Program-made: the position numbers and the translations under genes | Shown here: positions 12,409 through 61,452 of the stretch, one piece after another | Layout: each line of letters opens with the position of its first letter | How positions within the stretch are numbered: position 1 is the first letter of the stretch | Source: a virus | Taxonomy: Duplodnaviria; Heunggongvirae; Uroviricota; Caudoviricetes | DNA: 64,000 bases | Direction: 5' to 3' (one strand) | IMG/VR virus record: IMGVR_UViG_3300044638_009648 | Notes under the pieces: generated by a model | Told to the model about the DNA's origin: nothing | The model's input: only the letters and a program-made list of their open reading frames with translations | Database searches by the model: none

Positions 12409-12423
12409 TATATTTGCAGAATG
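12409..12423 (+). promoter_or_regulatory. TATATTTG-N4-ATG: Bacteroidetes -7-type promoter element abutting the start codon
   Basis: Motif at 12409-12416, ATG at 12421. Confidence 0.45.
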
Positions 12424-12972
12424 GAAAACGATAACAACATGAAAGATTTTATTGCAATTATTTTCGGTGACTTTAACACCTCAAGAAAGGTTTATGATGC
12501 TATGTTAACAATAACACCGGTTGTTGAATCTGAAAATTTGAAATTTCAGTACAATGATTTGTCAATTATTTGTCATTTCCAGAGTAAGGAATCCCAACAA
12601 GAAATTCAAGAATTTTTTACAGTGGCTTTGTTTGAATTATGTGGAATGTTTTTTATTTCTGAAACAAAAAATATGTCAATTTTCATGGACCAACAAATGA
12701 CACAACATTTGATGAATCTCGAAGCCAGTGAAAACGTAAACATGGCAATCGATATGGACAAAGTTCGAAATGGACAAGATATATTTTTGGAACAAGATTT
12801 GCTTAATATTCCAATTGTATTTGACCAAGAAGATGAAGAGGATGATATTAAATTATTACAGAAAAAGCCCATGGAACCTTCCCTGGACCAACTTTTGGAG
12901 AAAATTCATATTTACGGATACAAATCACTTTCAGCGCATGAGCTCAAAATTCTTAATACCTACAGCAATTAA
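12421..12972 (+). CDS. Acidic hypothetical protein upstream of the sigma factor
   Basis: Start placed at the ATG 4 nt after a TATATTTG motif (ORF track start 12406). Confidence 0.45.
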   Translation: MENDNNMKDFIAIIFGDFNTSRKVYDAMLTITPVVESENLKFQYNDLSIICHFQSKESQQEIQEFFTVALFELCGMFFISETKNMSIFMDQQMTQHLMNLEASENVNMAIDMDKVRNGQDIFLEQDLLNIPIVFDQEDEEDDIKLLQKKPMEPSLDQLLEKIHIYGYKSLSAHELKILNTYSN

Positions 12973-12975
12973 TCT

Positions 12976-13776
12976 ATGAAAGACAAAATTACATCAATTC
13001 CCTTCAATCAAGAAGAAATCGCAACTTATCTCAAAGATATTCGCAAAATAAAAGTTATGACTCCTGAGCGTGAGCGCGAATTAGCTCAACGAATTTTATC
13101 AGGAAATATCTCTCTCGTAGAAAAACGAGAAATCGAACGTGAATTGCTTATTGGTAATCTTAGATTTGTTATTACTGTTGCAAAACAGTACCAAAACCAA
13201 GGTTTGGAATTGGCCGATTTAATTGCAGAAGGTAATTTAGGTTTACTTAAAGCTGTTGAAAAGTTTGATTGGTCGCAACAATTGCGATTTATTTCTTATG
13301 CGGTATGGTGGATTCGTCAAGCTATATTGCAATCGTTGAACGAAAATTCTAGAACAATTCGACTTCCGGTCAATGTTGTTCAAGAATTGCAAAAAGCAAA
13401 AAAACTCGTTGAAAATAACGGTCAAGACCTGCCCGATAAATTTGCGACTTTACCATATACAATAAATTATGATTCTCCATTAAATGAAGAAGGAGATACT
13501 TTGTTGGATGTATTAAAAAACCCAGATGCGGCAATGCCTGACTCTATTTTTGATACTAAAGAAATGTTGAAAGATAAGCTTTTAAACGTAATGAATATTT
13601 TAGATAATCGTGAACGAGTAATTATTGAGGATTACTTTGGTATTTCAGGTCAAACAAGAACTTTGGAGGACATCGGAAACGATTTTCAACTAACGAAAGA
13701 AAGGGTCCGTCAAATTAAAGAAAAAGCTTTACGAAAACTTCGTAATGAATCTGGACAATTGTTTGAATACCTTTAA
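12976..13776 (+). CDS. Sigma-70 family RNA polymerase sigma factor (regions 2-4)
   Basis: Region 2: DLIAEGNLGLLKAVEKFD and FISYAVWWIRQAI. Region 4: LEDIGNDFQLTKERVRQIKEKALRKLR. Confidence 0.85.
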   Translation: MKDKITSIPFNQEEIATYLKDIRKIKVMTPERERELAQRILSGNISLVEKREIERELLIGNLRFVITVAKQYQNQGLELADLIAEGNLGLLKAVEKFDWSQQLRFISYAVWWIRQAILQSLNENSRTIRLPVNVVQELQKAKKLVENNGQDLPDKFATLPYTINYDSPLNEEGDTLLDVLKNPDAAMPDSIFDTKEMLKDKLLNVMNILDNRERVIIEDYFGISGQTRTLEDIGNDFQLTKERVRQIKEKALRKLRNESGQLFEYL

Positions 13777-13827
13777 TTACTATTAATTACTATTTATTAG
13801 AATAAAACAAAAAAAAATAGTTTTATC

Positions 13828-16009: not shown

Positions 16010-16379
16010 AAATATTTTAATTTTTTTAAGTAAAAATTTTAACAAAATTGGTATAACACTTTTAATTTTATTCGGTTTATATTGGATAATTTTTATACTC
16101 ACACCTTCGATAAAAATGTCGAGTGTTGCTGTAGAAGAAATAAAAAAATTGGACGAAGAAATTGGAACCATCAAATTGGAACAAAACATTCTTTATACGG
16201 AAATTCAACAATACGAAGAAAAAATTGAAGGTCTTGATGAAAACATTACAAAAATAAACACAACACAAAATAAAATCGCAGGTCAATATGGCGAAAAAAT
16301 TAATGCTGCTAGGAGTTATGATTATCAGCAGCTTGTCTCTTTTCTCTCAGAACGTTACTCCGACCCAGGAGTTCATTAA
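15987..16379 (+). CDS. Hypothetical membrane/coiled-coil protein
   Basis: TM segment ITLLILFGLYWIIFIL followed by a coiled coil. Confidence 0.3.
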   Translation: MVMKKNFENILIFLSKNFNKIGITLLILFGLYWIIFILTPSIKMSSVAVEEIKKLDEEIGTIKLEQNILYTEIQQYEEKIEGLDENITKINTTQNKIAGQYGEKINAARSYDYQQLVSFLSERYSDPGVH

Positions 16380-21464: not shown

Positions 21465-22388
21465 ATGAAAAATTATTTTGAAATATTAGGCGTCTCAGAA
21501 GATGCTAACGATGATGAGATTAAGAAACAATATAGATTATTATCAAAAAAATACCACCCTGACATAAATCCTGGCGGGGCAGATAAATTCAAAGAAATTG
21601 CCGAAGCTTACGATGTTTTATCTGACCCAGATAAAAAAATAAGATACCAACAACAAAAAAACAACCCTTTCAACGGTGGACCATTTGAAGAATTCTTCAA
21701 AAATGTTTACTCCAGTGGGCCTGAATTTCACCACAAAAGAAAAGTTGCTGATAAAATCATAAAACTACCAGTAAGTGTTTCAGAATCTTATAGAGGGATT
21801 TCTAAACAAATTAATTATCAAAGAAACATCGCCTGTACGGATTGCAATGGAAATGGCGGTGAAAACATACCATGTAGTCAATGTCAAGGTTCAGGATTCT
21901 TTTTTCAAATTTTGGGCTCAGGATTTTTCCAACAAAAGCTAAGAGTGGCGTGTCCATCTTGCCAGGGAAAGGGAAAAATCATAGTGTCTTATTGTGGCAC
22001 GTGTTCCGGAGTTGGTACAAAGTCAAATTTTGAAACTATAAATGTTAATCTACCCAAAGGTATTGATGACGGGCAATTTATGAAACTTGAAGGTAAAGGA
22101 GATTTTATCCAGGGAATGTACGGTGACCTAGTTTTACAAACCACAATGCAACAAGATGGTGAGTTCCAAAAAATGGGCGTTGATTTGATTTATAATTTAA
22201 TTTTAGACTTAGAAACTATTAAGGGTGAAATATTTCAAATCCCTCATCCTGATGGTGAATTGAAAATTGGTGCGCCGCAAATTATTGACACAAATAAACC
22301 GCTAAGATTAAAAAATAAAGGTTTCCCCGGGGGGGACATGTATGTCAAGATTAATGTCGTATATGATAAATCAAAACAGGTTGACTAA
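21465..22388 (+). CDS. dnaJ: DnaJ/Hsp40 co-chaperone (J domain, CR zinc finger and C-terminal domain)
   Basis: J domain with YHPDINP (HPD motif), followed by four CxxCxGxG zinc-finger repeats (CTDCNGNG, CSQCQGSG, CPSCQGKG, CGTCSGVG). Confidence 0.85.
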   Translation: MKNYFEILGVSEDANDDEIKKQYRLLSKKYHPDINPGGADKFKEIAEAYDVLSDPDKKIRYQQQKNNPFNGGPFEEFFKNVYSSGPEFHHKRKVADKIIKLPVSVSESYRGISKQINYQRNIACTDCNGNGGENIPCSQCQGSGFFFQILGSGFFQQKLRVACPSCQGKGKIIVSYCGTCSGVGTKSNFETINVNLPKGIDDGQFMKLEGKGDFIQGMYGDLVLQTTMQQDGEFQKMGVDLIYNLILDLETIKGEIFQIPHPDGELKIGAPQIIDTNKPLRLKNKGFPGGDMYVKINVVYDKSKQVD

Positions 22389-22780: not shown

Positions 22781-24202
22781 ATGATTTCGATGGTAACCAT
22801 GACAAAATCAAAAAATGCGCTCTCTCGTTTTGAGTTCTTGTTCAACAAGTATGTCAACCTTGAGAAATGGATGAGTTCTGAATATGAACTAAACTTTTTC
22901 CCTTATTATAATAGCGTGTTTGAAACAATCACATCCAAAGTGAATGTTGCAGATTTTTTTACCATCATTTTGTTTGACCCTACAACCCGTTTAAATGGTA
23001 TTACAGAACTTTACATCCAAAAGATGCTCGAAAATAAGACTCTTAATTTATCAGACTTGTGTGGTAAAATAAAAGTTGGTGAATATTCCGAGTGGTTAAT
23101 CAAACAGTTTTTGAATGTAGTATCCAACCAATCTAATGATAGTTCCGGTCAAGCTCGTGAAACTCTTTTACTGCGTGTTCGTTTTATTGAAGACCTCTAT
23201 AAGGTGCAAGAAAACCTTACGAAGTTTCATAGGTTCAAAAACCGTCTTATTGAAGATAATAGAGACATTAATAAACTTACGATTGGGGATTTGGAGTTTC
23301 TGATGTCGGAGTATTCTCTGGAAAAAACTAAGGCTACGGCAGAGGAGAAAGAGTCGGCAAAGAGTTCGTATTCATATCCTGGTTCGGAAATCGTTTTCAA
23401 AGGACTTAAATGGACAGTTGTCAAAATTAGTCAATTGAACGACTTGGCCAAAGATGCTGCATGTTTCTTTGGGGGTTATGATTTGAAACCAACAATGGGT
23501 GAAACAGCCTGGTGCACAGCCTCTCCTGGAACTTACAACCGTTACAACTATCATGCAGAAAAAGGTCCTTTGTATGTAGTGCTCCCTAATGAATGTGATA
23601 CGTTTGGAAAAAAAACAGGACTACCGTCAGTTAGGTATCAATTTCACTTCTCCACAAATCAATTCATGGACAAACACGACAAGAAAATTATTTTGACGGA
23701 TTATCTCAATGGTCCTATGTTGGAGCTTAAAGAATTTTTCAAACCTGAATTCGCTGCTGGATTGATAGGTAATGGTGGTGAAGAACTTTTGATTGATGAT
23801 TTTGAAAACGGTTCGGTTGGTAAGTACATTAAGTTGTATGGTCTTGATGATTTGTTTGATATTATTCCAGATACCTTGACCAAGATACATGTTAAAAATA
23901 GCAAAGCTGGTGTATCTCTGATTTTACCGGCCTCAATCACCCGGTTTAAAAATCTAACATCAATTTACTTCAAGAACTGTCTGTCAGAAATCCCTGAAGA
24001 AATCTGTTCACTTGAAAATCTTGTTTTTATAGCATTAGAGGGTAATCAAAATCTCAAGCAACTACCTGAAAAAATTATCGACTTACCAAAACTCTTATTC
24101 TTAAATCTAAAGGGTTGCTCTAATCTCACTCTCTCCGATTACTTTAAATCTAATAGTTTTGAGTTTGGTCCTGGTCTATGGAAAGGAAAAGCTATGATAT
24201 GA
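22781..24202 (+). CDS. Paralog family member 2: N-terminal WCTAS-motif domain fused to C-terminal leucine-rich repeats
   Basis: ETAWCTASPGTYNRYNYHAEKGPLYVVL core. C-terminal LRRs: LTSIYFKNCLSEIPEEICSLENLVFIALEGNQNLKQLPEKIIDLPKLLFLNLKGC. Confidence 0.55.
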   Translation: MISMVTMTKSKNALSRFEFLFNKYVNLEKWMSSEYELNFFPYYNSVFETITSKVNVADFFTIILFDPTTRLNGITELYIQKMLENKTLNLSDLCGKIKVGEYSEWLIKQFLNVVSNQSNDSSGQARETLLLRVRFIEDLYKVQENLTKFHRFKNRLIEDNRDINKLTIGDLEFLMSEYSLEKTKATAEEKESAKSSYSYPGSEIVFKGLKWTVVKISQLNDLAKDAACFFGGYDLKPTMGETAWCTASPGTYNRYNYHAEKGPLYVVLPNECDTFGKKTGLPSVRYQFHFSTNQFMDKHDKKIILTDYLNGPMLELKEFFKPEFAAGLIGNGGEELLIDDFENGSVGKYIKLYGLDDLFDIIPDTLTKIHVKNSKAGVSLILPASITRFKNLTSIYFKNCLSEIPEEICSLENLVFIALEGNQNLKQLPEKIIDLPKLLFLNLKGCSNLTLSDYFKSNSFEFGPGLWKGKAMI

Positions 24203-24236
24203 GTGTAATATAAGCTACAACAACATATTTATTATT

Positions 24237-26096
24237 ATGAAATTACTTAATATCTTAAATGGTACTCTTATAGTAGAGGTTTCTGAGAGCCTTAAGAAAA
24301 AGCTTTTGGATAAATTTAAACTTGAAACTCAAGACACTGAGAAAGATATTCTCGAATATATTGAGAGCTTCGAAAAATACCAACGGTCGCTTCCAGCTGA
24401 CCAGCGAGACATCACGCGTTACGATTTCAAAACTCTGAAGTCCTTAATTGACTCGATAGAAAATGGTAAAACTCGTAAAGCTGATGTGAATTCTGCGATT
24501 ACTAGTATAATCAAAAAAACACAGGAAAAAAAAGAAGTTTTTTCGTTACCAGAGTTACAGTTAGCGGTAAAAAAGTTTTTTGAAATTCAATCTGAAATAA
24601 AAGATGCTAACAAAGATATTAATAAGTTCAGTTATTTAAAACTCATACAATTTCTGGAAAAAAATTACGAGGACTTATTAACTCAGAAATTATTAAACAA
24701 ATTCAAACCGGAAAACCAAATTCTCACAAACGAGCAAATTTTATCTTATATTTCAGAATATATTGAAAATTTTAATGATATACCCTTTGATACGCCAGGT
24801 GCTGATTTAATGTCCTTTACCCAATTTGAACATTTAATTGATGCGATGATTGCAAAAAGAGGTCTTGGAAAAAAAACCAAAACTGAATTAAAAGATATTC
24901 CTCCTATCTATGATGATGGCGAAGACTTCAAAATTTATGCACCAACAGGAAAGGAACACTGTATCAAACTAGCCCATGGGCGTACTTGGTGTATTGGCTG
25001 GCTTGGTGGTCGAAACTTGTATTACAATTATCGAATAGGGAATGAAAGAACCATTTATTATGTTATAGACGAATCTTTAGACTACGAAGACCGTTATTTC
25101 GCAAATGTGATTTTGGTTGACCCAAGGGGTGGTACTTCTTTTGCTGACAAGACCAATTCTAGACCATTTGATGGCAGTGTGAATTTGCCTTGGGACGAAA
25201 TCTCTGGTTTCATTCCAAAGTTAAAAAATCTAAAAAATTTATTCGTTTCTAGACCCCTTAGCGAGGATGAAATCGAAATGCGGGACAGATATCAAAACAT
25301 AGAGTATGATAGACGTGGCAATAGAAGATTACCCAATAATCAAACCCCGATGGAATATTTTGATTCTCCAGAAAAGATTGCACAATGGATGGAAATTAAA
25401 GGGCCTGAGTTATTTGATGAAGATTACGCTAGTTTACCCCAAGAATTGAAAAAGAAGTACGTTGCTCTTGGATTTGATTTAACACCCGGTCAAATTGCTA
25501 CCTCTGAAGCTTCTGTTTTGAATTATTACGCTAAGAGAAAAATTGAGAATATTAAACAGAGCACTTTAAATAAGCTTGATGATGGTGATATTGCTTTATT
25601 AAATTCCCCAATTTTTAAGCAATTGAAACAGGAGTTGAAACCTCGTTTCAGTCAAGGTCTTTCAAGAAACTCAGACCCATCTGAATTTGAAGTACTTGGT
25701 TTTAGTAGAAACAGTGAAGTGGGTAAGTTTTTAAAGTTGTACAGTTTGGAAGACTTTATTGAATTCATCAATCCCAATGTAGAATCTATAACAATTCAAG
25801 GTGACGATTCTAATGTTAAAATCAAAATACCTAGAGCTATAGTTGAATTTAAAAATTTGGGAAGTTTAGTTTTGTCGAATGGTGTTATCGATGAAATACC
25901 GGACTACATTTGTGAACTCAAAAATTTGAAATTCTTAGGTTTACAGAATAATCCCGGAATCACTAGATTACCTGATTGTGTTGCAGATTTACCTTTACTT
26001 GAAATTCTAAATTTGCAAGGTTCGGATAATGTTGTTATTCCTGAATCAGTTAAAAATAGATTCTCAGAGGACTTAGGTCCTGGCATTTGGACGTAA
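24237..26096 (+). CDS. Paralog family member 3: WC-motif domain fused to C-terminal leucine-rich repeats
   Basis: HGRTWCIGWLGGRNLYYNYRIGNERTIYYVID core. LRRs: LGSLVLSNGVIDEIPDYICELKNLKFLGLQNNPGITRLPDCVADLPLLEILNLQG. Confidence 0.55.
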   Translation: MKLLNILNGTLIVEVSESLKKKLLDKFKLETQDTEKDILEYIESFEKYQRSLPADQRDITRYDFKTLKSLIDSIENGKTRKADVNSAITSIIKKTQEKKEVFSLPELQLAVKKFFEIQSEIKDANKDINKFSYLKLIQFLEKNYEDLLTQKLLNKFKPENQILTNEQILSYISEYIENFNDIPFDTPGADLMSFTQFEHLIDAMIAKRGLGKKTKTELKDIPPIYDDGEDFKIYAPTGKEHCIKLAHGRTWCIGWLGGRNLYYNYRIGNERTIYYVIDESLDYEDRYFANVILVDPRGGTSFADKTNSRPFDGSVNLPWDEISGFIPKLKNLKNLFVSRPLSEDEIEMRDRYQNIEYDRRGNRRLPNNQTPMEYFDSPEKIAQWMEIKGPELFDEDYASLPQELKKKYVALGFDLTPGQIATSEASVLNYYAKRKIENIKQSTLNKLDDGDIALLNSPIFKQLKQELKPRFSQGLSRNSDPSEFEVLGFSRNSEVGKFLKLYSLEDFIEFINPNVESITIQGDDSNVKIKIPRAIVEFKNLGSLVLSNGVIDEIPDYICELKNLKFLGLQNNPGITRLPDCVADLPLLEILNLQGSDNVVIPESVKNRFSEDLGPGIWT

Positions 26097-47564: not shown

Positions 47565-47565
47565 A

Positions 47566-47748
47566 ATGAATGATTTACAATGGTGGGGTTATCTTCATGT
47601 TGAGGGTTCTCTACAAGTAAAACGATACTTTGGTCCTGAAGACGTTAAGGAAGCTATGGAAAGCCCCTTCGTAGCTTTAGTTTATGGACCCTTCATAGCG
47701 GACGGTATAGAACAAGCTCTGCAGATTTTATCGGAACACTTGGGTTAA
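47566..47748 (+). CDS. Small hypothetical protein
   Basis: Start moved to the ATG after the upstream stop (MNDLQWWGY...). A terminator follows. Confidence 0.35.
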   Translation: MNDLQWWGYLHVEGSLQVKRYFGPEDVKEAMESPFVALVYGPFIADGIEQALQILSEHLG

Positions 47749-47774
47749 GTGTGTTTTTGTTTTTCATGGGAAAC

Positions 47775-47801
47775 CTCCATCTGCAAAGGTGGGGGTTTTT
47801 T
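47775..47801 (+). terminator. Intrinsic terminator (weaker stem)
   Basis: CCTCCA ... TGGGGG (one G-U pair) followed by TTTTTT. Confidence 0.45.
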
Positions 47802-47818
47802 ATTTCAGTAATTTTTAA

Positions 47819-47833
47819 TATCTTTGTACTATG
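47819..47833 (+). promoter_or_regulatory. TATCTTTG-N4-ATG promoter/start arrangement
   Basis: Motif at 47819-47826, ATG at 47831; immediately downstream of a terminator. Confidence 0.5.
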
Positions 47834-48451
47834 ATTGACAACCTATATCAAATCAAGTCCCTGCTTAACTTCGAAAAGGATGGGGACTTTTACATGCTTT
47901 ACGTTTTGAAGCGTAAGAAAGACCAAACCACTGACAAGTCCAACCACCAATCCGTTAGGACAATTAAGACTTATTGTGTTGAAAGTGTTGAATACCTTGA
48001 GAAACGATATGATGAGATAAAAGAACTTTGTGAGATGTTCAAAGCCAGGGCATATATTCATGTTCAAAAGCAAAGTCACCACGACGTATCATTGAATATG
48101 TTGGTTGCTCTAGCAGAGCGTATTCGTAATGGTCAACACCGCCAGCAACACTTATTTGATTCTGTTGTGGGTCAATTGAAAACTTTGGAAAAGCGATGGA
48201 TTATTGATATCGATGGAATATCAATTGATGGTTTTGCTCATGCTCCTTTCTATAAGGAAATGCGTCGGTACATAAGTGAACTGCAAGATGAAACTGGTAA
48301 GGAAGTTGAGATGACTTTCATCCCAACTAGGGCTGGGTTTCATATTATTGCCTCACCTTTTAATCTACAAAAGTTCAAAGAGCGTTATCCCGAGGTTGAA
48401 GTGCATAAAAAAAATCCGACACTTTTGTTTCTTCCAGATAGTTTAAATTGA
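47831..48451 (+). CDS. Hypothetical protein; first gene of the RNA repair cassette
   Basis: ATG 4 nt after a TATCTTTG motif; function unknown. Confidence 0.45.
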   Translation: MIDNLYQIKSLLNFEKDGDFYMLYVLKRKKDQTTDKSNHQSVRTIKTYCVESVEYLEKRYDEIKELCEMFKARAYIHVQKQSHHDVSLNMLVALAERIRNGQHRQQHLFDSVVGQLKTLEKRWIIDIDGISIDGFAHAPFYKEMRRYISELQDETGKEVEMTFIPTRAGFHIIASPFNLQKFKERYPEVEVHKKNPTLLFLPDSLN

Positions 48452-48452: not shown

Positions 48453-48467
48453 TATCTTTGTAAGATG
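48453..48467 (+). promoter_or_regulatory. TATCTTTG-N4-ATG promoter/start arrangement
   Basis: Motif at 48453-48460, ATG at 48465 (RNA ligase). Confidence 0.5.
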
Positions 48468-49538
48468 AATATTGAAACACTCAATCGGTATCACGAAGAT
48501 GGATTGCTGTATAAACAAACCCATCCCACACTCCCTTTGACTATATGGAACTATAATGAAAAAGTCCAGTACGAAGGGTTGTGGGATGAGGTGACTCTGC
48601 AATGTCGAGGTTTAATTACTGAAGATACTACCGGTACGATTTTGGTTCGCCCTTTCAATAAGTTCTTTAATTACGAGGAGGTTGTTGGAAAGGGTATGAT
48701 ACCTACAAAAGGTGACTATGTGTACATCCAAGAAAAGATGGATGGGTCCTTGGGTATTCTTTTCAACTACAAAGATGAATGGATTATGGCAACTCGTGGT
48801 TCATTTACCTCTGAACAAGCCATAAAAGGTCTTGAGATTGTTAAATCTAAGTATTTCTTGGTTTCATGGGCTAAGGAATATGCTTACTTGGTAGAAATCA
48901 TCTACCCTGAAAACCGTATCGTTGTTGACTACGGTGAGGAAAAGGTAACTTTTTTATCTGTGGTTTTGAATGAGAGTTGGAAATGGAAACCAACGGACGA
49001 CACTGAACTACACTGGACTACCGCAAAGATGATTCTACATGCTAACGGTGTTAAAGATAATTTGGTAAAAACCGAACAACACTTCAACTTCTCTGATGAG
49101 TTATACAAGTCGTTGAAAGAAAAGAACGAAACCAACAAAGAAGGTTTTGTTCTTAGATTCCAACCTGGTAACTTCAGGATGAAAATTAAGTTTGAAGAAT
49201 ATGTTCGTCTCCATAAAGTTATGACCAACCTGTCGACAACTGCGGTTTGGGAGGTATTATCCAACGGTGGTAATATTGATGACTTGTTGAAGGATGTGCC
49301 TGATGAGTTTTATTCCAAAATCAATGACTATGAGAAATCTTTGATTATTCAGTTTAACAACTTGGAAGAGGAATACCAAAACCACTTTGATTCTATCAGA
49401 AGATTGGGTAATAGAAAGTTATTTGCTCAGTGTGCGGTCATGTTTCAACACCCATCAATATTGTTTGGTATGTTGGATGGTAAAAACATTTCTTCTATAA
49501 TTTGGAAGATTATCAAGCCGGAATTTCGTAAGTTGTAA
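48465..49538 (+). CDS. ATP-dependent RNA ligase, Rnl1-like
   Basis: Nucleotidyltransferase motif I VYIQEKMDGSLGILF (compare T4 Rnl1 KEDGSL); 357 aa. Confidence 0.62.
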   Translation: MNIETLNRYHEDGLLYKQTHPTLPLTIWNYNEKVQYEGLWDEVTLQCRGLITEDTTGTILVRPFNKFFNYEEVVGKGMIPTKGDYVYIQEKMDGSLGILFNYKDEWIMATRGSFTSEQAIKGLEIVKSKYFLVSWAKEYAYLVEIIYPENRIVVDYGEEKVTFLSVVLNESWKWKPTDDTELHWTTAKMILHANGVKDNLVKTEQHFNFSDELYKSLKEKNETNKEGFVLRFQPGNFRMKIKFEEYVRLHKVMTNLSTTAVWEVLSNGGNIDDLLKDVPDEFYSKINDYEKSLIIQFNNLEEEYQNHFDSIRRLGNRKLFAQCAVMFQHPSILFGMLDGKNISSIIWKIIKPEFRKL

Positions 49539-49547: not shown

Positions 49548-49562
49548 TATCTTTGTTGTATG
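49548..49562 (+). promoter_or_regulatory. TATCTTTG-N4-ATG promoter/start arrangement
   Basis: Motif at 49548-49555, ATG at 49560 (phosphoesterase). Confidence 0.5.
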
Positions 49563-50207
49563 AAAATCGTATTAGAAAAAGGACAGGGTCTGTTTTTCAC
49601 ATCAGACACTCACTACAACCACGGGAACATTTGTCGTGCCACCACCAAATGGGTGGGTGCTGACAACCTGACCCGTGATTATAAGTCCTTGGACCATATG
49701 AACGATACGTTGGTGAATCGAATCAATGAGATGGTGGGTGAGAACGATATCTTGGTTCACTTGGGTGACTGGTCGTTCGGTGGATTTGAATCTATTGCTG
49801 AGTTCCGTAGTCGGATTCTTTGTAAGAACATTCACCTGACTTTCGGTAACCACGACCACCACATCCGTAGAAACAAGGGTGATATCCAAGACATCTTTTC
49901 ATCTTGTCAGGACTACCTTCACTTGGATATTCGCAAGCCCATGGGCAAAGAGGTTTTGAAATATTCGATGGTGTGTATGCACTATCCGATTGCCTCATGG
50001 GACGGAATGAATGACGGTGTTGTTCACCTTCACGGACACGTTCACCTTCCACCCAACCTTCGTATCAACGAGGGTAGAGCCATGGATGTTGGTGTTGATG
50101 GAAACGACCTTTACCCAATTTCTTTTGAGGAAATCCGAAACATTATGAAAGACCGTCCTTGCCGAAAATTGACTTTACCTAAAGACCACCACGAAAAAAG
50201 ATTGTAA
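49560..50207 (+). CDS. Calcineurin-like metallophosphoesterase (candidate 3'-phosphatase / 2',3'-cyclic phosphodiesterase)
   Basis: DTHYNHG, HLGDWSFGG, FGNHDHH, HLHGHVH motifs. Confidence 0.7.
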   Translation: MKIVLEKGQGLFFTSDTHYNHGNICRATTKWVGADNLTRDYKSLDHMNDTLVNRINEMVGENDILVHLGDWSFGGFESIAEFRSRILCKNIHLTFGNHDHHIRRNKGDIQDIFSSCQDYLHLDIRKPMGKEVLKYSMVCMHYPIASWDGMNDGVVHLHGHVHLPPNLRINEGRAMDVGVDGNDLYPISFEEIRNIMKDRPCRKLTLPKDHHEKRL

Positions 50208-50211: not shown

Positions 50212-50631
50212 ATGATACCAAAAATATTAACGTTAGTAAGGGGATTGCCAGGAAGTGGTAAATCAACATTTGCAAATTTTATTTGGAATGAGTATGCAAT
50301 ATGTGAAGCTGATAAGTTTTTTTATGATTCGGAAGGACATTATGTATTTGATGCAAGTAAATTAAGGGAAGCTCATAAGTGGTGTAGAGATGAAGTTGAA
50401 ACCCGTATGAAGGATAATGAAGTAAACCCACAATACTATCCTGAAATTGTAGTATCCAATACATTTACTCAAGAGTGGGAAATGGAAGAGTATTTTAAAT
50501 TAGCTGAGAAGTATGGATATATGGTATTCACTATTGTAGTGGAAAACCGACATGGTGGAGTAAATCAACATGGAGTACCTGAAGAAAAGTTAGAGCAAAT
50601 GAAAAATAGGTTTGAAATCAAAATAATTTAA
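50212..50631 (+). CDS. Polynucleotide 5'-kinase (T4 Pnk kinase-domain-like P-loop kinase)
   Basis: MIPKILTLVRGLPGSGKSTFANF parallels T4 Pnk [22 protein letters not shown]. Confidence 0.7.
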   Translation: MIPKILTLVRGLPGSGKSTFANFIWNEYAICEADKFFYDSEGHYVFDASKLREAHKWCRDEVETRMKDNEVNPQYYPEIVVSNTFTQEWEMEEYFKLAEKYGYMVFTIVVENRHGGVNQHGVPEEKLEQMKNRFEIKII

Positions 50632-51954: not shown

Positions 51955-52827
51955 ATGAATCCAATTGCTAAAATTATCTTGTGGGGCGGTATTGCCCTTG
52001 TTGCCATTCTTTCATTCTTCGGATGTGAGCGTATCGACGCTGGACATGTCGGCGTTAAAGTTGACATGTACGGTGATGGTAAAGGTGTAAACGATGTTAC
52101 TGAAGTAACTGGATGGGTATTTTACAACCCCTTGAGCACCAAAATTGTAGAGTTCCCAACCTATGTTCAACATATTGAATACACTCGCAAAGTTGATGAA
52201 TACGGTGAGGTGATTAGCGACGAATCTTTTGTTGTAAACTCTAAGGATGGTTCTGAATTCCACGTGTCACCAATTCTGAACTACTCAGTAAAACGTGAAA
52301 AGGTACCATATATCTTCAGTAAGTATCGAGTTGAACTCCCACAAGTTGAGCAAGGATTTCTCAAAACTGCTGTTTACGATGCATTCCGTATTGTAGCGAA
52401 CTCATATACTGCTGATGAACTTATCGGTAACCGTGAGAAGTTTGAACTTAAAGTTCGTCAGGTGCTCCAAAAGCAACTTGAACCCGAAGGTTTCATACTT
52501 TCTCAGTTCACCTCAAACCTGGTCTATCCTGAAACTTTTAAGAAAGCAATCGAAGCGAAGAACAACGCTGTGCAAGCCGCACTTCGTGCAGAAAATGAGG
52601 TAAAGACCGCAGAAGCTCAAGCAAAAATCAAAATTGCAAAAGCTGAAGGTAACGCTCAAGCTATGCTCACATCAGCAAAGGCAGAAGCTGAAGCTAACCG
52701 ACTCAAGCAACAAACCATTACTCCAATGCTGCTTCAGTTAGAGTGGATAAACAAATGGGATGGCCGTGTTAGTCAGTATTCTTTGGGTAATGGAGCTTCC
52801 CCGATGATAATGTTACCAAACAAGTAA
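51955..52827 (+). CDS. SPFH/Band-7 (stomatin/prohibitin/HflC-like) membrane protein
   Basis: N-terminal TM segment, SPFH-like core, and a C-terminal Ala/Glu-rich helix AEAQAKIKIAKAEGNAQAMLTSAKAEAEANR typical of this family. Confidence 0.65.
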   Translation: MNPIAKIILWGGIALVAILSFFGCERIDAGHVGVKVDMYGDGKGVNDVTEVTGWVFYNPLSTKIVEFPTYVQHIEYTRKVDEYGEVISDESFVVNSKDGSEFHVSPILNYSVKREKVPYIFSKYRVELPQVEQGFLKTAVYDAFRIVANSYTADELIGNREKFELKVRQVLQKQLEPEGFILSQFTSNLVYPETFKKAIEAKNNAVQAALRAENEVKTAEAQAKIKIAKAEGNAQAMLTSAKAEAEANRLKQQTITPMLLQLEWINKWDGRVSQYSLGNGASPMIMLPNK

Positions 52828-54270: not shown

Positions 54271-54696
54271 ATGAAGGAGAAAATTTATGTTGGAGTAATA
54301 GTCAAAGTAAATGATGAAGTTTTACTTTGTAAAAGGTCTACCAAGGGCTCACTTCCTGGTATGTGGTCTGTTCCAGCTGGAGGTGTTGAAGAAGGTGAAA
54401 CGACTAAAGAAGCCGCTGTTAGAGAGTTTCACGAAGAAACTGACATAATAATTGCATCAGATGATTTAAACTTTGTTGGTCTAGTGCCTAGGACCTCACG
54501 AGACGGAAAGTTTATTAAGGGTTGGATGTATGTTTATCTTTTAGAAAGTAACGCTTTCCTTTATCCAGATTTAGAAAATGCTAAAGACGGTTCAGAACAT
54601 TCTGAGTGTGGTTATTTTACTTTTGAGGATATGTTAGAGTTGAACACTGAAAAGTTTTTTAAAAAGTTATTAGAAGCAATTTTAAATAAGGTTTAA
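54271..54696 (+). CDS. Nudix hydrolase
   Basis: Nudix box GGVEEGETTKEAAVREFHEETDI. Start placed at the internal ATG to avoid overlap with the minus-strand gene. Confidence 0.8.
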   Translation: MKEKIYVGVIVKVNDEVLLCKRSTKGSLPGMWSVPAGGVEEGETTKEAAVREFHEETDIIIASDDLNFVGLVPRTSRDGKFIKGWMYVYLLESNAFLYPDLENAKDGSEHSECGYFTFEDMLELNTEKFFKKLLEAILNKV

Positions 54697-54793
54697 CTTT
54701 TTGGAAGTTAGCATATATTTATTATCTTGACCGAGAGGTTGAAACACCCCCACAAAAAGTTCTACAAGCCATTTGACAAATCCTATATTTGTT

Positions 54794-54801
54794 TTATCTT
54801 T
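54794..54801 (+). promoter_or_regulatory. TATCTTTG -7-type element upstream of the tRNA/ncRNA block
   Basis: Motif in the intergenic region after the Nudix gene, about 40 nt before a hairpin and about 110 nt before the candidate tRNA. Confidence 0.35.
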
Positions 54802-54839
54802 GTGGAACGCTCGGAAGAAGGACTAAGGTCCCTTTCACA

Positions 54840-54887
54840 TCCCACAACGAGTGCTCGAGAGAACATGGTAGTTGTGGGATTTTTTTC
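54840..54887 (+). terminator. Hairpin plus T7 run (terminator or leader structure)
   Basis: TCCCACAAC ... GTTGTGGGA followed by TTTTTTT. Confidence 0.6.
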
Positions 54888-54911
54888 CGGGGGTCGTTCT
54901 TAAAAATATAG

Positions 54912-54985
54912 TGCGGATTAGAGTTCTGGTGAACTCGGAAGTCTCATAAGCTTTCTTCAGGGTTGTTCGATTCAGCCATCCGCTA
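54912..54985 (+). tRNA. Candidate tRNA-Met(CAU)
   Basis: Hand-folded cloverleaf: acceptor TGCGGAT / ATCCGCT (1:72 mismatch); D stem GAGT / ACTC; anticodon stem GAAGT / GCTTT (two G-U pairs) with loop CTCATAA (U33, CAU anticodon); T stem GGTTG / CAGCC with T-loop TTCGATT. The variable loop is 6 nt, one longer than usual. Confidence 0.4.
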
Positions 54986-55860
54986 CAAAAAAAAGTTTGA
55001 TAAGGTACTTGACAAAATCAAAACCGTTATTATACTTTAACAACAAGTCAGGGAAACTTGACGAGTTCTTTGAATTACAAAATAGGCGGTTTAGCGTCTT
55101 TAGATAACCCCAGCGATGGGACTAAAAGGGATGAAGGGTTTAGCGACCTTGGTAATCTCGCAGGACTTCGGTCTTGACAACTAAACAAAGTACCTACGGT
55201 TGAAACCCTGACGGCAAGTGCTGAGGGGATGATGCCACACCGATTTCGTGGAGAGTCGGGGTTGCGGTGGAGACACCAATAGGAAAAGGTACAGGTGACG
55301 GTTTGAGACATCCCGCCGGGTGTTGTAAAGCTGGGTACCAGTCCGAAGGGTTACCACGGGGTTAAACCTACCGTAGTCCTGAGTGACCGTGAACTGGCGG
55401 GTTCACAGAGAGGTGTGAAGCATTTTGTTCCCAAAAGGAGCGGAACTTCTCCCGAAGCACATCTTTCATTCTTCCACAAAGCTACATATCAATGAATGAT
55501 ATTCTAAGATACAAGCAAAAGTCTTCGGGCGTTGATACTGAAAGGTGTCTAATCCTTCAGGTCATCGGACCAATGAAGGCATCAATCGGACCGCAAGTCC
55601 CTTGGTGTTAATTGTGAAACTACTCGTGGGACGGCCATCCCTTAGTGAGCTCGCAAGGCTCAAGAGATAGGAGTATCAGTTGAGTTGGTGTCAACGAAAA
55701 GAGTGGTAGACTCAAATTACCGACACTGGTTGGATACAACAGGCAACTGTTGTGGACCGAGTGGGGAAAGGATAATCCCACTAAAGACTGACCATCTAAG
55801 CTCGTAGTCTCAGAGCATTAGCCGAACCCCCTTCCGTAAGGTTGGGGGTTTTTTTATTTT
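54986..55860 (+). ncRNA. Candidate large structured non-coding RNA (unclassified)
   Basis: About 0.9 kb with no plus-strand ORF. It is markedly GC-enriched relative to flanks (hand count of one 128-nt stretch is about 57% G+C). Many local hairpins, and it ends in a strong intrinsic terminator. Confidence 0.3.
55825..55857 (+). terminator. Intrinsic terminator closing the GC-rich RNA block
   Basis: AACCCCC-ttccgtaagg-TTGGGGG followed by TTTTTTT. Confidence 0.7.
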
Positions 55861-55888
55861 AATATTTGGTAATATAAAAACTCTTTCG

Positions 55889-55903
55889 TATATTTGTTGT
55901 ATG
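55889..55903 (+). promoter_or_regulatory. TATATTTG-N4-ATG promoter/start arrangement
   Basis: Motif at 55889-55896, ATG at 55901. Confidence 0.45.
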
Positions 55904-56215
55904 AAAAAACAAACCACTATGAAATTCAGTTTTCACCAGGTTCAGGTCGAACACGAAAAGTTTGGTTCGCTTGTTCAGGAAAGCTTTTTGAACTTTACCC
56001 AGTTCAAGCTCTTTTTGATGCAAATTCATGGTGCCTTGGAAATGAAAGAAGCCCTTTCGTTTTACAATGGTAGTGACATGTTAATTTACATCCCATACAA
56101 GTTTCTGGTTGATTCAATTATTTTGACTAAGAGCCAAGAAGCGGATGGTGAAACCAACATCTCTGAACACTTCCGCTCGAAAATTGAAGCCTTGGTTACT
56201 AAAGAAGAGTCCTAA
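55901..56215 (+). CDS. Hypothetical protein
   Basis: ATG 4 nt after TATATTTG; terminator downstream. Confidence 0.4.
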   Translation: MKKQTTMKFSFHQVQVEHEKFGSLVQESFLNFTQFKLFLMQIHGALEMKEALSFYNGSDMLIYIPYKFLVDSIILTKSQEADGETNISEHFRSKIEALVTKEES

Positions 56216-57576: not shown

Positions 57577-57612
57577 TTTGAAATTAACTTTTTTTTGATT
57601 ATATTTTGATTC

Positions 57613-58860
57613 ATGAATACAAAGAAACCATCAGCTATTGTATATGGTTGGCACACATCAGGGGAAACAGTATTAATATCAGACATTTATTGGGAAGAAG
57701 GTCTTCATGATGAAGTTAACATATATTCCTTACCATACACAAATAATGTAATTGAAGATTATACCAAATTCAAACCTGATTTGATAATTAGTTTCGGTGA
57801 AGAAATTGAAATTCCTCATTTTCATTTAACAAGATTTCACATTCATTATGATGAACTCATTCCGGATATTATCCTTGCTAATGTAATTGTTTGTCAATCT
57901 GTTTTTAGAAGCTCAACTAACTTCAGACCACGGTTTTCAATATTTACACCAACCTATAAAACTGGTGAAAGAATTTTTAGAACATACGAAGGTTTGAAAA
58001 ACCAATTATACAATAATTGGGAATGGGTTGTTGTTGACGATTCTCCTGATAATGAAACTTGGGAAAAATTAAGGGAAATTGCATCGAAAGATTATAGAGT
58101 TAAACTTCATAGAATATATCCTTTAACTGGTGGAAATGTTGGCCTAGCTAAAAATAGGGCTGCGCATCTTTGTGACGGGGATTGGATTGTTGAACTTGAC
58201 CACGATGACACATTGACAAGTGAATGCTTATCTACAGCAAATGATGCCATTGCCGCTTACCCCGACGCTGGTTTTATTTATACGGATTGTGCGGAAATGT
58301 ATGATGATGAAGAACCTAAATATTACGACCACGATTGGACAGGTAATTGGTATGCTAGGGAAGATAATTTTTTTGATTTCGGTTATGCTGGGCACACCTG
58401 GGTTGAAGTCGATGGTGAAACTAGACTGGCACACCATTACCCAGATATTAATCCATTAACAATTAGATTTAACATTTCTATGCCTAACCATGCTAAAATG
58501 TGGGATAGAAAGGTTTATCTGGAAATGGGGGGGCACAATAAATTCATCCCTGTTGCCGATGATTTGGAGATTAATATTCGCACTTTTTTGAATACTAAAA
58601 TGATTCACATAAAAAGGGTATTGTATTTGCAGTTCAATAACAGAAACAGTACCGTGGATAATAATTCAACAGATATTAATCGTCGTGCCAGATTAATCAA
58701 AGACCATTATGACAAAGCGGTTCATGACAGAATCGAAGAGTTAGGTTTTGAGGATTGGAATTGGGATAGTGAAAAACTTCACTCCCAAAAATTTCAAAAC
58801 TCCGGTGGTCCTCGCCGTTATTTTGAGGATGAACAAGTAATGAATTACATTTATGAATAA
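57613..58860 (+). CDS. Family-2 (GT-A fold) glycosyltransferase
   Basis: FSIFTPTYKTGERIFRTYEGLKNQLYNNWEWVVVDDSPDNET, the canonical GT2 N-terminus with DxD. Confidence 0.7.
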   Translation: MNTKKPSAIVYGWHTSGETVLISDIYWEEGLHDEVNIYSLPYTNNVIEDYTKFKPDLIISFGEEIEIPHFHLTRFHIHYDELIPDIILANVIVCQSVFRSSTNFRPRFSIFTPTYKTGERIFRTYEGLKNQLYNNWEWVVVDDSPDNETWEKLREIASKDYRVKLHRIYPLTGGNVGLAKNRAAHLCDGDWIVELDHDDTLTSECLSTANDAIAAYPDAGFIYTDCAEMYDDEEPKYYDHDWTGNWYAREDNFFDFGYAGHTWVEVDGETRLAHHYPDINPLTIRFNISMPNHAKMWDRKVYLEMGGHNKFIPVADDLEINIRTFLNTKMIHIKRVLYLQFNNRNSTVDNNSTDINRRARLIKDHYDKAVHDRIEELGFEDWNWDSEKLHSQKFQNSGGPRRYFEDEQVMNYIYE

Positions 58861-60013
58861 CAAAAAAGCAAAAATTGTACTTAATGCAATGGTGGCCAAT
58901 GAGGCCAGAACCATTACCAGAATGTTGGAATCTGTATATCAATACATTGATTATTGGGTTATACAGGACAATGGTTCTAAAGATGGTACACAGGACATAA
59001 TTAGAAACTTCTTTGAGGAAAAAGGAATACCAGGTTTTTTATATGAAACCGAATGGTTGTTTCCTGGATTCAACAGAGACCATGCTTTACAAGAATGTTT
59101 GAAAGCTGACCATGGTTGTGATTGGATTTTGCGAATGGATGCAGATGAAAGATTGGAAGTGGACTCTGATTTTGATTGGTCAATATTGGAAGATACAAAT
59201 ATTGATTCTTTTAATATCATTGTCAGAAGTTTCAACACTAGGTATTTCAGGACCTGGATGTGGAATGCCCGCAGACCTTGGTTTTTTCAACATGACAAAC
59301 GGCATGAAACAATTCATCTGCCAGAGGTTGGTGAATCATTCCAACGAATTACACTACCTGAAAGTTTTAGACACATTGTTACCAATGATGGACAAACTTG
59401 GTTTGCACCCAGGAAGTTTCTAAGAGATGCCCTGGAACTTGAAATTGATAAAGTTGTGGGTAACACCATACTTGAAGACCATTATCATTTATGGTATGTC
59501 GGGAAAAGTTATGCTGATTGTTACGGAAAACCTGATGAATTAGCTTTTGGAAAAGACCACTCTGATGAATATGCTCGTAGGGCAATTTATTACTTTAAAC
59601 ATTTTCTTAGGGTATCTCATAATTATTGGGAAACCAAAAAACCTGCAAGACATGATGAAATGGCTTACATGACTTTCATTCTTATTGCTGCAGCAATGGA
59701 TTTTCGTGGAGAAACTGAAGAAGCGTTGGGTATGTTTCCACAAGCCAAAGCATTTGCTCCTGAACGAAATGAACATTTGTTGTATTGGGCTATAATGTTG
59801 GAAAAACATGGAAAACATGATAAAGCATTAGAATTGGTTGATATGATGATGGTACCGGAAAAGAAAAATCCATTCCCTAATTTATGTTTTCTGATTGAAA
59901 ATCGTGCTTATACTGACACCTCAAATTTTTTGGTGGAGTGGAAAGAACACTTATTAAAAAGAATCAATGAACCTATTTTAAGTAACGAAGGTGTTGTCTT
60001 TGATTTCGAATAA
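58853..60013 (+). CDS. Glycosyltransferase family 2-like protein
   Basis: KIVLNAMVANEARTITRMLESV ... WVIQDNGSKDGT. Confidence 0.55.
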   Translation: MNNKKAKIVLNAMVANEARTITRMLESVYQYIDYWVIQDNGSKDGTQDIIRNFFEEKGIPGFLYETEWLFPGFNRDHALQECLKADHGCDWILRMDADERLEVDSDFDWSILEDTNIDSFNIIVRSFNTRYFRTWMWNARRPWFFQHDKRHETIHLPEVGESFQRITLPESFRHIVTNDGQTWFAPRKFLRDALELEIDKVVGNTILEDHYHLWYVGKSYADCYGKPDELAFGKDHSDEYARRAIYYFKHFLRVSHNYWETKKPARHDEMAYMTFILIAAAMDFRGETEEALGMFPQAKAFAPERNEHLLYWAIMLEKHGKHDKALELVDMMMVPEKKNPFPNLCFLIENRAYTDTSNFLVEWKEHLLKRINEPILSNEGVVFDFE

Positions 60014-61103
60014 AAAATACGATTTTGTTATTGTAGGTTCTGGATTTTTTGGGGCAACATGTGCTTATGAACTTTCTAAAAAGTACAAGTGTTTAGTAAT
60101 CGACAAACGTTCTCACGTTGGTGGTAATTGTTACACTGAAAATTTAGAGGACATCCACATCCATAAGTATGGTGCTCACATTTTCCACACTTCAAATAAA
60201 GAAATTTGGGATTGGGTAAATCAATTTGCAGAATTTAAGCAGTTTGTTAACTCTCCAATTGCAAATTATAATGGCGAGCTTTATTCTCTCCCTTTTAACA
60301 TGTGGACCTTTTACCAACTTTGGGGTGTAAAAACTGCTGAAGAAGCTAAAGCTAAAATAGAAAGTCAAAAGTATACTGGTACAATAACTAATCTTGAGGA
60401 GCAAGCCCGAAGCATGGTTGGTGATGACATATACTACAAGCTTATAAAAGGTTATACTGAAAAACAATGGGGAAAAAAATGTACGGAACTTCCAGCGTCT
60501 ATTATAAAAAGATTACCTGTAAGATTTACTTGGGATAATAATTACTTTAACGACAAGTATCAGGGAATTCCAATCGGTGGGTACACTCAGATTTTCGAAA
60601 AATTACTTTCTGGAATAGAAACTCACCTCAACGTAGATTTTTTTGAAAAGAGAAATTACTATGAGTCCATCGCCCACAAGATTATTTATACTGGACCAAT
60701 TGACCAGTTCTTTGATTATGAATTTGGAAGATTGGAATATAGGAGTTTGCGGTGGGAAAATACATACATTTATACTGACAGTTTTCAAGGTCACCCTGTT
60801 GTTAATTACACTGACGAGCAAACTCCATTTACCAGGATATTAGAGCATAAGTTTTTTGATTATCAAAATCAAAAACGAAGTTATGTGAGTAAAGAATTTC
60901 CTTGTGATTATACTGGAGATAATGAACCTTACTATCCGATTAGAGATAATCACAACGTAGAGGTTTATCAAAAGTATAAAGAGCTTGCAGAAAAAAAATC
61001 TCAATATCTATTTGGCGGTAGGTTAGGAACTTATGCTTATTACGACATGCATCAGGTTATTGCCCAAGCATTAAATACGGTTAGTAAGCTGACTCAAACT
61101 TAA
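59991..61103 (+). CDS. glf: UDP-galactopyranose mutase
   Basis: FAD-binding YDFVIVGSGFFGATCAYEL ... VIDKRSHVGGNCYTE ... IHKYGAHIFHT and overall colinearity with Glf. Confidence 0.88.
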   Translation: MLSLISNKKYDFVIVGSGFFGATCAYELSKKYKCLVIDKRSHVGGNCYTENLEDIHIHKYGAHIFHTSNKEIWDWVNQFAEFKQFVNSPIANYNGELYSLPFNMWTFYQLWGVKTAEEAKAKIESQKYTGTITNLEEQARSMVGDDIYYKLIKGYTEKQWGKKCTELPASIIKRLPVRFTWDNNYFNDKYQGIPIGGYTQIFEKLLSGIETHLNVDFFEKRNYYESIAHKIIYTGPIDQFFDYEFGRLEYRSLRWENTYIYTDSFQGHPVVNYTDEQTPFTRILEHKFFDYQNQKRSYVSKEFPCDYTGDNEPYYPIRDNHNVEVYQKYKELAEKKSQYLFGGRLGTYAYYDMHQVIAQALNTVSKLTQT

Positions 61104-61377
61104 TGTCTGTGGCGCACAGAGTATCTTTGCTTATTAAAGATATTGTCTTGCTGATGGTTTGTGTAATAATGTTGGATATTGCGCCTTGATTTACCTCAGG
61201 GTTTTTTGTTACGACATTAACACCATAAACCCAGTCGCACATAGCGGTCTTAATTGGCGCACTAAAAATAAATGTAAGAGTAATTGAATCTACTTCATTC
61301 AACGAAGAATTATTTTTCAAAAGATTTGACAAAATCTTTTCTACAGATTTTTTCATTATCAAATTTTTGTCTGCCAC
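61081..61377 (-). CDS. Hypothetical protein (minus strand); possible GTG start
   Basis: ORF only. Confidence 0.25.
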   Translation of the reverse strand: MADKNLIMKKSVEKILSNLLKNNSSLNEVDSITLTFIFSAPIKTAMCDWVYGVNVVTKNPEVNQGAISNIITQTISKTISLISKDTLCATDIKFESAY

Positions 61378-61437
61378 TTTGCATAATTTTCTACAAATAT
61401 AAATACTTTGTTTGTTGTTTACATAAAAATTTTTTTA

Positions 61438-61452
61438 TATCTTTGAACTATG
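61438..61452 (+). promoter_or_regulatory. TATCTTTG-N4-ATG promoter/start arrangement
   Basis: Motif at 61438-61445, ATG at 61450 (umuD-like). Confidence 0.5.

Follow-up and report, generated by a model that had tools for sequence, protein, structure and literature searches.

The window analysed here is the whole 64,000-nucleotide stretch of the Caudoviricetes record IMGVR_UViG_3300044638_009648. It contains a set of genes whose start codons lie exactly four nucleotides downstream of the octamer TA(T/A)(C/A)TTTG. We consider it likely, with a probability of about 0.8, that the mRNAs of these genes begin at the AUG and that their promoters are of the Bacteroidota sigma-A type. We scanned both strands of the 64-kb window for TA[TA][CA]TTTG-N4-ATG, in which N4 stands for the four-nucleotide spacer. 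Eight matches were found, all on the + (gene) strand, with the ATGs at 12421, 26146, 43859, 47831, 48465, 49560, 55901 and 61450. One hundred dinucleotide-preserving shuffles of the window gave a mean of 0.46 matches and a maximum of 3. Because no shuffle reached eight sites, the N4 set is not explained by chance. A preliminary description of this DNA had listed seven of the sites, all of which were recovered where it placed them, and had suggested a comparison with shuffled controls, which reveals positional enrichment (8 vs 0.46). It overlooked the eighth site, TAAATTTG at 43847 with its ATG at 43859. The start position, the leaderless translation and the identity of the sigma factor reading the box are inferred.

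The octamer alone is not enriched in the window, where TAnnTTTG occurs 96 times against 82 ± 9 expected. The unusual feature is its spacing to the ATG, not its frequency. In a histogram of TAnnTTTG-N(d)-ATG for d between 0 and 30, nine matches fall at d = 4 and zero to three at each other distance. Second-order Markov simulations averaged 0.6 matches at d = 4, with 4 at most, and the count on the minus strand is 0. The ninth match, TAGTTTTG at 25867, is intragenic and out of frame, and is probably a chance occurrence. Exact N4 boxes precede 8 of the 74 gene starts and 1 of the 1092 other ATGs (Fisher p = 1.6e-9). N4 boxes with one mismatch (3921, 4549 and 43076) are not over background, at 3 of 74 starts compared to 1.6%. 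A scan of the window for sigma-70 promoters of the TTGACA/TATAAT type showed no meaningful enrichment (86 vs 69 ± 10), as expected for Bacteroidota.

Promoter geometry and spacing

Promoters read by the Bacteroidota primary sigma factor, sigma-ABfr, contain a -33 element, TTTG, some 19-21 bp 5' of a -7 element, TAnnTTTG or TAHHTTTG. They have been described in B. fragilis, F. johnsoniae, B. thetaiotaomicron and F. psychrophilum (PMC6847099, PMC7366714, PMC9723704). Mapping of start sites in F. johnsoniae defined the -7 element as T-12 A-11 T-8 T-7 T-6 G-5, with 4 or 5 nucleotides to the start, refined its consensus to TAHHTTTG and indicated that the -33 element is weak (PMC6847099). The -7 element is likewise located at -12 to -5 in F. 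psychrophilum (PMC9723704). When TAnnTTTG occupies -12 to -5, a four-nucleotide spacer places the A of the ATG at +1. All eight window sites fit TAHHTTTG, being TA[TA][CA]TTTG with no G at -10 or -9. The octamer had been equated with the Bacteroidetes sigma-A -7 consensus in the preliminary description, and the published maps agree.

Extended features were analysed in 47 unique TAnnTTTG-N4-ATG sites, each followed by an open reading frame (ORF) of at least 50 amino acids, from the window and 72 related viral contigs. The contigs were found through their RNA ligase, and the sites were weighted by 24 orthologue groups. A number of features that the search did not impose are present. Position -10 is T in 86% and position -9 is A or C in 82%. 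T occupies -17, -16 and -15 in 73%, 79% and 93%, respectively, and an A-rich stretch is found at -24 to -21. Further upstream, positions -36 to -33 are T in 58-76% and position -32 is G or T (G in 39%), a pattern that corresponds to the -33 TTTG element. A pyrimidine is found at -1 in 83%. Many of the N4 sites directly follow a GC-rich hairpin with a T-run overlapping the -33 region; the window examples are at 47768-47801 and 55831-55855.

The same profile at -36 to -32 is observed in leadered promoters of these phages, with the box 12-30 nucleotides from the ATG, and in promoters from Bacteroidota genomic loci. In the leadered phage promoters, the fifth base past the G of the box, which is the predicted +1, is A in 74%. 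The leadered base frequencies (0.74 × 0.45 × 0.04) give an ATG at +1 by chance in about 1.5 of about 113 promoter groups, and 34 N4 groups are observed. By these sequence features, the N4 sites appear to behave as complete Bacteroidota sigma-A promoters, not as a bare octamer.

We then compared the spacings between TAHHTTTG and the first ATG of ORFs with 60 or more amino acids. The window has eight boxes at N4 and six others that are scattered. The RNA-ligase loci have 37 at N4 and a hump at N16-29, and the sigma loci have 11 at N4 and a hump at N13-24. In 80 Bacteroidota genomic loci there are none at N4 and a hump at N19-34. The two-peaked spacing is specific to the phages relative to the sampled Bacteroidota loci. 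The cellular result agrees with published Bacteroidota leader lengths; in F. johnsoniae, 87% of transcripts have leaders longer than 10 nucleotides (PMC6847099). Counted by orthologue group, N4 makes up ~23% of the box-plus-ORF pairs in the sigma loci (7 vs 23 groups) and ~40% in the window and RNA-ligase loci together (21 vs 32), a figure inflated by the choice of loci around the RNA ligase, itself predicted to be leaderless.

Conservation and translation signals

The orthologue sets of the RNA ligase and the UmuD-like protein were gathered by protein similarity alone, with no selection for the motif. RNA ligase relatives down to 64% amino acid identity hold TA..TTTG-N4-ATG. Their inner bases are TC, TG, AC or TA, and their spacers are taag, taga, ttaa, tcgt, tttc, ttcc or ggga. 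In the loci L001-L005, a terminator is located upstream instead of a gene end. One relative (L022) is leadered, and in relatives at or below 56% identity the gene is coupled to an upstream ORF and the box is absent. The UmuD-like gene has the N4 geometry in 19 of 19 loci, nine with ATG, seven with GTG and three with a mismatch at G-5. In L242-L248, the GTG start is located exactly N4 past TATTTTTG, and these mRNAs, if leaderless, would begin with 5'-GUG.

Orthologues of the phosphoesterase, phrog_14949 and 43859 genes likewise hold N4 while the spacer sequence drifts. The N-termini of the orthologues align at the N4 codon for 43859, 47831, 48465, 49560 and 61450. A fixed spacer length with free spacer sequence, kept even with GTG, is as predicted if the start site is constrained to be the first base of the start codon. 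The -7 box lies at varying distances from the start in sigma-operon orthologues, showing that it serves as a promoter and is not anchored to the start codon. Some relatives have leadered versions of the ligase, phosphoesterase and phrog_14949 genes. The leaderless state therefore appears to shift between lineages and is not tied to function, and the earlier proposal of a specific gene class expressed in this way was too strong.

Sequences upstream of the start codons also differ between N4 and other genes. Tetramers resembling the Shine-Dalgarno (SD) sequence are depleted, at 4 of the 74 starts vs 9.1 expected, and the earlier statement that SD sequences are absent is essentially right. Genes without an N4 box have A at -3 in 59%. 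A-rich upstream regions without SD are the Bacteroidota pattern (PMC6847099). Between -20 and -1, the N4 genes contain 22% A and 54% T, compared to 46% A in the other genes. This T-rich composition is consistent with translation that does not use an A-rich leader. Geometry, additional elements, the spacing spike, conservation and the T-rich upstream regions all agree with the original suggestion of Bacteroidetes-type -7 promoters placed for transcripts predicted to start at the AUG.

In the proposed mechanism, RNA polymerase with a Bacteroidota-type sigma factor would contact both elements, -33 and -7, and begin the transcript at the A of the ATG. The product would be a 5'-pppAUG mRNA with no leader. 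The ribosome would recognize the 5'-terminal AUG directly, and not the A-rich, SD-free leader used by other genes. Compact units of this kind, behind terminator hairpins or inside the 3' end of the preceding gene, would provide single genes with their own transcript. Such units would serve, among others, the genes for the RNA ligase and phosphoesterase and the umuD-umuC-like pair.

Several points weigh against leaderless transcription from these sites. The canonical TTTG at -36 to -33 is present in just three or four of the eight window sites; two further sites have TTTC or a T-run there. The promoters at 12409, 43847, 48453 and 49548 are partly inside the preceding gene, and read-through transcripts could carry those genes too. 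In the genes at 12421 and 55901, codon 7 is also an ATG, and orthologues start there behind an 18-nucleotide leader. The cellular control set, composed of loci around rpoD, is small and its members are not independent. Leaderless mRNAs are rare in Bacteroidota, at 5.5% of mRNAs in F. psychrophilum (PMC9723704), and 5' untranslated regions shorter than 10 nucleotides make up 3.7% in B. thetaiotaomicron (PMC7366714). Finally, the placement of the transcription start at these ATGs is an extrapolation from other Bacteroidota.

The phage sigma factor, alternative explanations and known systems

The window encodes a phage sigma factor of 266 amino acids (12976-13776, + strand), in which Pfam detects regions 1.2, 2 and 4; region 1.1 is missing and region 3 is shortened. 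Among cellular proteins, its best matches are nearly all primary sigmas of Bacteroidota, with 42-49% identity over the full length, and include those of Bacteroidales, Muribaculaceae, Alistipes, Cytophagaceae, Saprospiraceae, Chitinophaga and Fulvivirga. The alignment with Bacteroidota sigmas of 286-291 amino acids spans the whole protein, except for a deletion of ~20 amino acids in region 3. Region 1.1 is absent from the Bacteroidota sigmas as well. The region 2.3-2.4 sequence is FISYAVWWIRQAILQSL in the phage, FISYAVWWIRQSILQAL in Bacteroidota and FSTYATWWIRQAITRAI in the canonical Firmicutes SigA, and the region 2.4 signature is kept in 120 of the 120 phage sigma homologues retrieved. Judged by these alignments, the phage sigma and the Bacteroidota primary sigma are homologous. 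When the PDB was searched for a solved Bacteroidota sigma or RNA polymerase, the top hits inspected were Firmicutes SigA. The recognition helix of region 4.2 reads TKERVRQIK in all 120 phage homologues, compared to TRERVRQIK in the cellular proteins. The invariant K in this helix and the shortened region 3 hint at an altered use of the -33 or an extended element.

Forty-eight contigs, of up to 315,966 bp, encode an identical sigma protein, indicating that the element is a jumbo phage (~316 kb). The sigma is also kept in the members of a large contig family, with lengths of ~230-320 kb. Indirect evidence points to a Bacteroidota host, namely the relatives of the sigma, the SD depletion together with A-rich leaders, and a gene with SprB repeats. 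As readers of the box, the host and phage sigmas are indistinguishable from sequence. The most likely reader, at least early in infection, is host sigma-A, because the same box precedes the phage-sigma operon throughout the family and the phage sigma would be absent before expression of its own gene, unless packaged in the virion. The phage sigma, with the same residues for -7 recognition, may take over later. When leaderless and leadered promoters were compared for upstream sequence that could distinguish them, as a stand-in for phage vs host sigma, the only difference was a marginal, non-robust excess of T at -16/-15 in the former.

A stricter division of labour is conceivable, in which the N4 promoters are a phage-specific class, for example middle or late, read only by the phage sigma, and the leadered boxes are read by host sigma-A. 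The family-wide presence of a primary-type sigma in these phages, with its K for R substitution and shortened region 3, would fit this arrangement. So would the T excess, which at -15 amounts to 19 of 21 N4 sites vs 18 of 32 leadered sites (p = 0.013, uncorrected). However, this difference fails correction for eight positions, and the sigma loci do not show it at -15. The match of region 2.4 to the Bacteroidota type suggests that -7 specificity is probably shared. In addition, the -7 and -33 consensus is identical in leaderless and leadered sites, and orthologous genes switch between the two forms with the same box. We regard such a division as possible but unlikely. It is very unlikely that the promoters are real but reached N4 by genome compaction, with translation mainly from read-through and transcription possibly starting elsewhere, for example inside the ORF for downstream genes. 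Four of the eight promoters do overlap the 3' end of the preceding gene, the gaps are just 9-39 nucleotides, and nearly all genes are co-oriented, making read-through possible. Compaction, however, predicts a spread of short spacings, whereas a single N4 spike is seen with almost none at N0-3 or N5-11. The length of four is held despite spacer drift and even with a GTG start, and the combination of a pyrimidine at -1 with A at +1 is compatible with transcription initiation there. Several N4 sites are located directly behind terminator hairpins, and the N4 genes are devoid of the A-rich context of internal starts elsewhere in the genome.

The fixed distance to the start codon would also be expected of a translational operator, and the octamer could be bound by a phage regulator or act as an RNA element in the 5' untranslated region that controls translation, with no promoter function. 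This is highly improbable. The octamer is the -7 consensus of the phylum and is accompanied by a -33 element and a pyrimidine-purine start signature. The same octamer serves orthologous genes at a variable N12-25, it is also found 5' of non-coding RNA genes, and it is not palindromic. Chance co-occurrence in an AT-rich genome, or start codons called incorrectly, is effectively refuted for the whole set by the excess over shuffles and the Fisher test given above, and by recurrence of the arrangement in dozens of related contigs. Miscalling may apply to the starts at 12421 and 55901, and 25867 looks like chance, but no alternative ATG lies close to the starts of the other six genes, and the proteins of their orthologues begin in alignment with the N4 ATG. 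We favour Bacteroidota-type promoters predicted to initiate at the start codon.

A further step would be that the jumbo-phage clade moved a large share of its sigma-A-type promoters to the leaderless geometry on purpose, gaining translation when leader-dependent initiation is blocked. We consider this speculative and quite doubtful. If true, the genes for RNA repair (counter-defence) and the umuD/umuC-like genes for damage tolerance would stay translatable under phage takeover or host defence. Infected cells would then have a distinct mode of translation favouring mRNAs with a 5'-terminal AUG or GUG, carried out by ribosomes that already ignore SD.

The predicted leaderless promoters can be compared with known systems. 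Like cellular sigma-ABfr promoters, they have the identical -7 consensus, T-rich sequence and G at -36 to -32, and AT-rich upstream tracts; the predicted +1, five nucleotides past the G of the box, also agrees with that system. Unlike those promoters, they are located on a phage that encodes its own sigma of that type. Leaderless mRNAs are few in the bacteria, whereas about a quarter to 40% of the recognizable boxes upstream of ORFs in the phage clade are at N4. Leaderless mRNAs are common in some Thermus phages and mycobacteriophages. Similar to systems in which a -10 element leads directly to the AUG, such as lambda cI transcribed from PRM, the melting element is ~5-12 nucleotides 5' of the start, and +1 is predicted here to fall on the A of the AUG. 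The absence of SD, the predicted lack of a leader and the strong preference for AUG are also shared with known leaderless mRNAs. The phage -7 element is of the TAnnTTTG and not the Pribnow type, and its leaderless status is predicted. Leaderless mRNAs are frequent in Actinobacteria, Deinococcus-Thermus and archaea, and the in-silico survey that reported leaderless genes in 1 of 37 Bacteroidetes genomes, at 2.4%, was unable to detect TAnnTTTG promoters (PMC3160421).

The phage sigma resembles the sigma-70 family factors of jumbo phages in being conserved across a big phage family. Unlike divergent late phage sigmas, it is a near full-length homologue of the primary sigma of the host phylum and keeps the lineage-specific region 2.4. 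The phages phiKZ and AR9 are reported to lack leaderless transcripts, and our search of the accessible literature found no report of leaderless promoters in Bacteroidota phages. Leaderless mRNAs, the -7/-33 promoter of Bacteroidota and the low leaderless background in the phylum are already known. A phage clade with a frequent, sharply defined and conserved N4 geometry appears to be new.

These observations bear on translation in Bacteroidota, which do not use SD pairing and whose ribosomes choose start codons in a way that is only partly understood. A clade whose recognizable promoters are predicted, in a quarter to 40% of cases, to yield 5'-AUG mRNAs would offer natural, conserved test substrates for leaderless initiation. 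TAHHTTTG-N4-ATG/GTG also provides a simple rule by which gene starts and transcription units could be called in uncultured Bacteroidota phages. The promoter-plus-start modules are compact and could be used for engineering Bacteroidota. In addition, a phage copy of a host-type primary sigma raises the question of temporal control.

Individual sites and neighbouring genes

Six of the eight genes are well-supported candidates for leaderless expression, as predicted from sequence: 26146, 43859, 47831, 48465, 49560 and 61450. The sites are all on the + strand, and coordinates are given from the first base of the box to the last base of the ATG. At 26134-26148, TATCTTTG and the spacer tttc precede gene 26146-26418, which encodes 90 amino acids with no assigned function. 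The box is intergenic, and T is present at -15. No viral relatives of this gene were found. At 43847-43861, TAAATTTG and the spacer ttcc precede gene 43859-44056 (65 amino acids), with TTTG at -36 to -33. Its orthologues hold N4 with other boxes, TAGATTTG-tcct-ATG in L005 and TAAGTTTG-tccc-ATG in L001.

Gene 47831-48451 (phrog_14949) is preceded by TATCTTTG and the spacer tact at 47819-47833. Directly 5' of this promoter is a terminator-like hairpin and T-run (47768-47801, + strand), and the T-run fills the -33 region. The layout of hairpin, promoter and ATG at 47768-47833 recurs at orthologous loci. The orthologues carry TATCTTTG or TACCTTTG with the spacer tcct, tttt or ttct, and one relative is leadered. 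The T4 Rnl1-like RNA ligase gene (48465-49538) follows TATCTTTG and the spacer taag at 48453-48467, a promoter that overlaps the 3' end of the preceding gene. The metallophosphoesterase gene (49560-50207) follows TATCTTTG and ttgt at 49548-49562. Its orthologues have the spacer taat, tcgt, tgat, tatt or tctt, and in L030 the box is located behind a terminator. An AAA_33 P-loop kinase gene (50212-50631, +) has no -7 box of its own and forms an RNA-repair cassette with the ligase and the phosphoesterase. The UmuD-like gene (61450-61767) follows TATCTTTG and the spacer aact at 61438-61452, and a gene for a Y-family polymerase (62012-63214) comes after it. These assignments uphold the RNA repair cassette and the UmuD-like protein named in the preliminary description.

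The remaining two sites are ambiguous; the genes may be leadered, dual-start or recent conversions to the leaderless form. At 12409-12423, TATATTTG and the spacer caga precede gene 12421-12972 (DUF6576), the first gene of the phage-sigma operon, which ends 4 nucleotides ahead of the sigma gene. Orthologues in ~50 relatives have the same -7 box followed by an A-rich leader of ~12-25 nucleotides. The start in the closest relative (L153) aligns to codon 7 of the window gene (12439). Gene callers disagree on the identical sequence (183 vs 177 amino acids). At 55889-55903, TATATTTG and the spacer ttgt precede gene 55901-56215, with TTTG at -36 to -33. Only two viral relatives were found (L252 and L253). 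In both, the N4 position reads ATA and the gene starts at the ATG corresponding to codon 7 in the window, with an 18-nucleotide leader.

Two looser variants had also been proposed. At 57600-57615 (+), a degenerate box, TATATTTTG, is followed by attc and the ATG of a glycosyltransferase gene at 57613. This variant is weak, with one extra base in the box, and orthologues carry a degenerate TATAWTTTD at N4-5. The other, TAATTTTG with N2 and the ATG of gene 63247 (63237-63249, +), is unsupported. The arrangement is not kept in orthologues, which instead conserve a palindrome there, and we rejected it as a leaderless promoter. This palindrome, GATATT-N9-10-AATATC, is kept 5' of the gene (window 63215-63246; L272-L275), after the umuD/umuC-like pair. 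The palindrome could be an operator or a hairpin; the window copy is imperfect.

Other -7 boxes in the window have different contexts. A leadered TATCTTTG (26451-26458, +) precedes the DUF932 gene at 26485 with an A-rich spacer of N26. Tandem boxes, TATATTTG and TATCTTTG, are found at 54784-54802 (+), starting at 54784 and 54795, 5' of a non-coding transcript. This transcript contains an RNA of ~105 nucleotides with no assigned family (54807-54911), which ends in a hairpin and T-run, followed by tRNA-Met(CAT) at 54912-54986 and a GOLLD RNA. GOLLD is located at 55408-55816 (+) within the non-coding stretch 54697-55900. It is a full-length match to Rfam RF02032, with 301 bits compared to a gathering threshold of 150, and is ended by a terminator hairpin and T7 (55831-55855, +) 5' of the 55889 promoter. 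The 5' variable half of GOLLD may span 54987-55407, and the minus-strand ORF at 55075-55311 is probably spurious.

Nearly all ORFs in the window are on the + strand, and its GC content is ~33%. A megablast search with 18 kb of the window gave no match among deposited phages. Searches by tblastn with the Glf-like protein and the sigma found just distant or contaminant hits and no cultured relative. Three consecutive genes at 29890-40770 encode collagen-like tail fibres with GXY repeats, of 1139-1293 amino acids counted from the first start codon. The GC content of this block (29.9-40.8 kb) is 45-55%. We considered and rejected foreign DNA as its origin, as the GC content reflects the composition of the collagen-like repeats.

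A likely cluster for cell-surface glycans is found at 57613-61103, with family-2 glycosyltransferase genes at 57613 and 58853. It includes a gene similar to UDP-galactopyranose mutase (59991-61103), ~58% identical to glf genes annotated in Streptococcus phages. Cargo genes are located at 44658-45824, 21465-22388, 51955-52827, 54271-54696, 22781-26096 and 42-1700. Their products are a glutamine synthetase-like protein, a full DnaJ (J, CXXCXGXG and C-terminal domains), an SPFH/Band 7 protein, a NUDIX hydrolase, two proteins with C-terminal leucine-rich repeats and one with SprB repeats. Featureless intergenic stretches of ~190-300 nucleotides are present at 9816-10008, 16010-16287, 47565-47767 and 61104-61400, and small ORFs may be located in some of them, such as one on the minus strand at 61081-61434.

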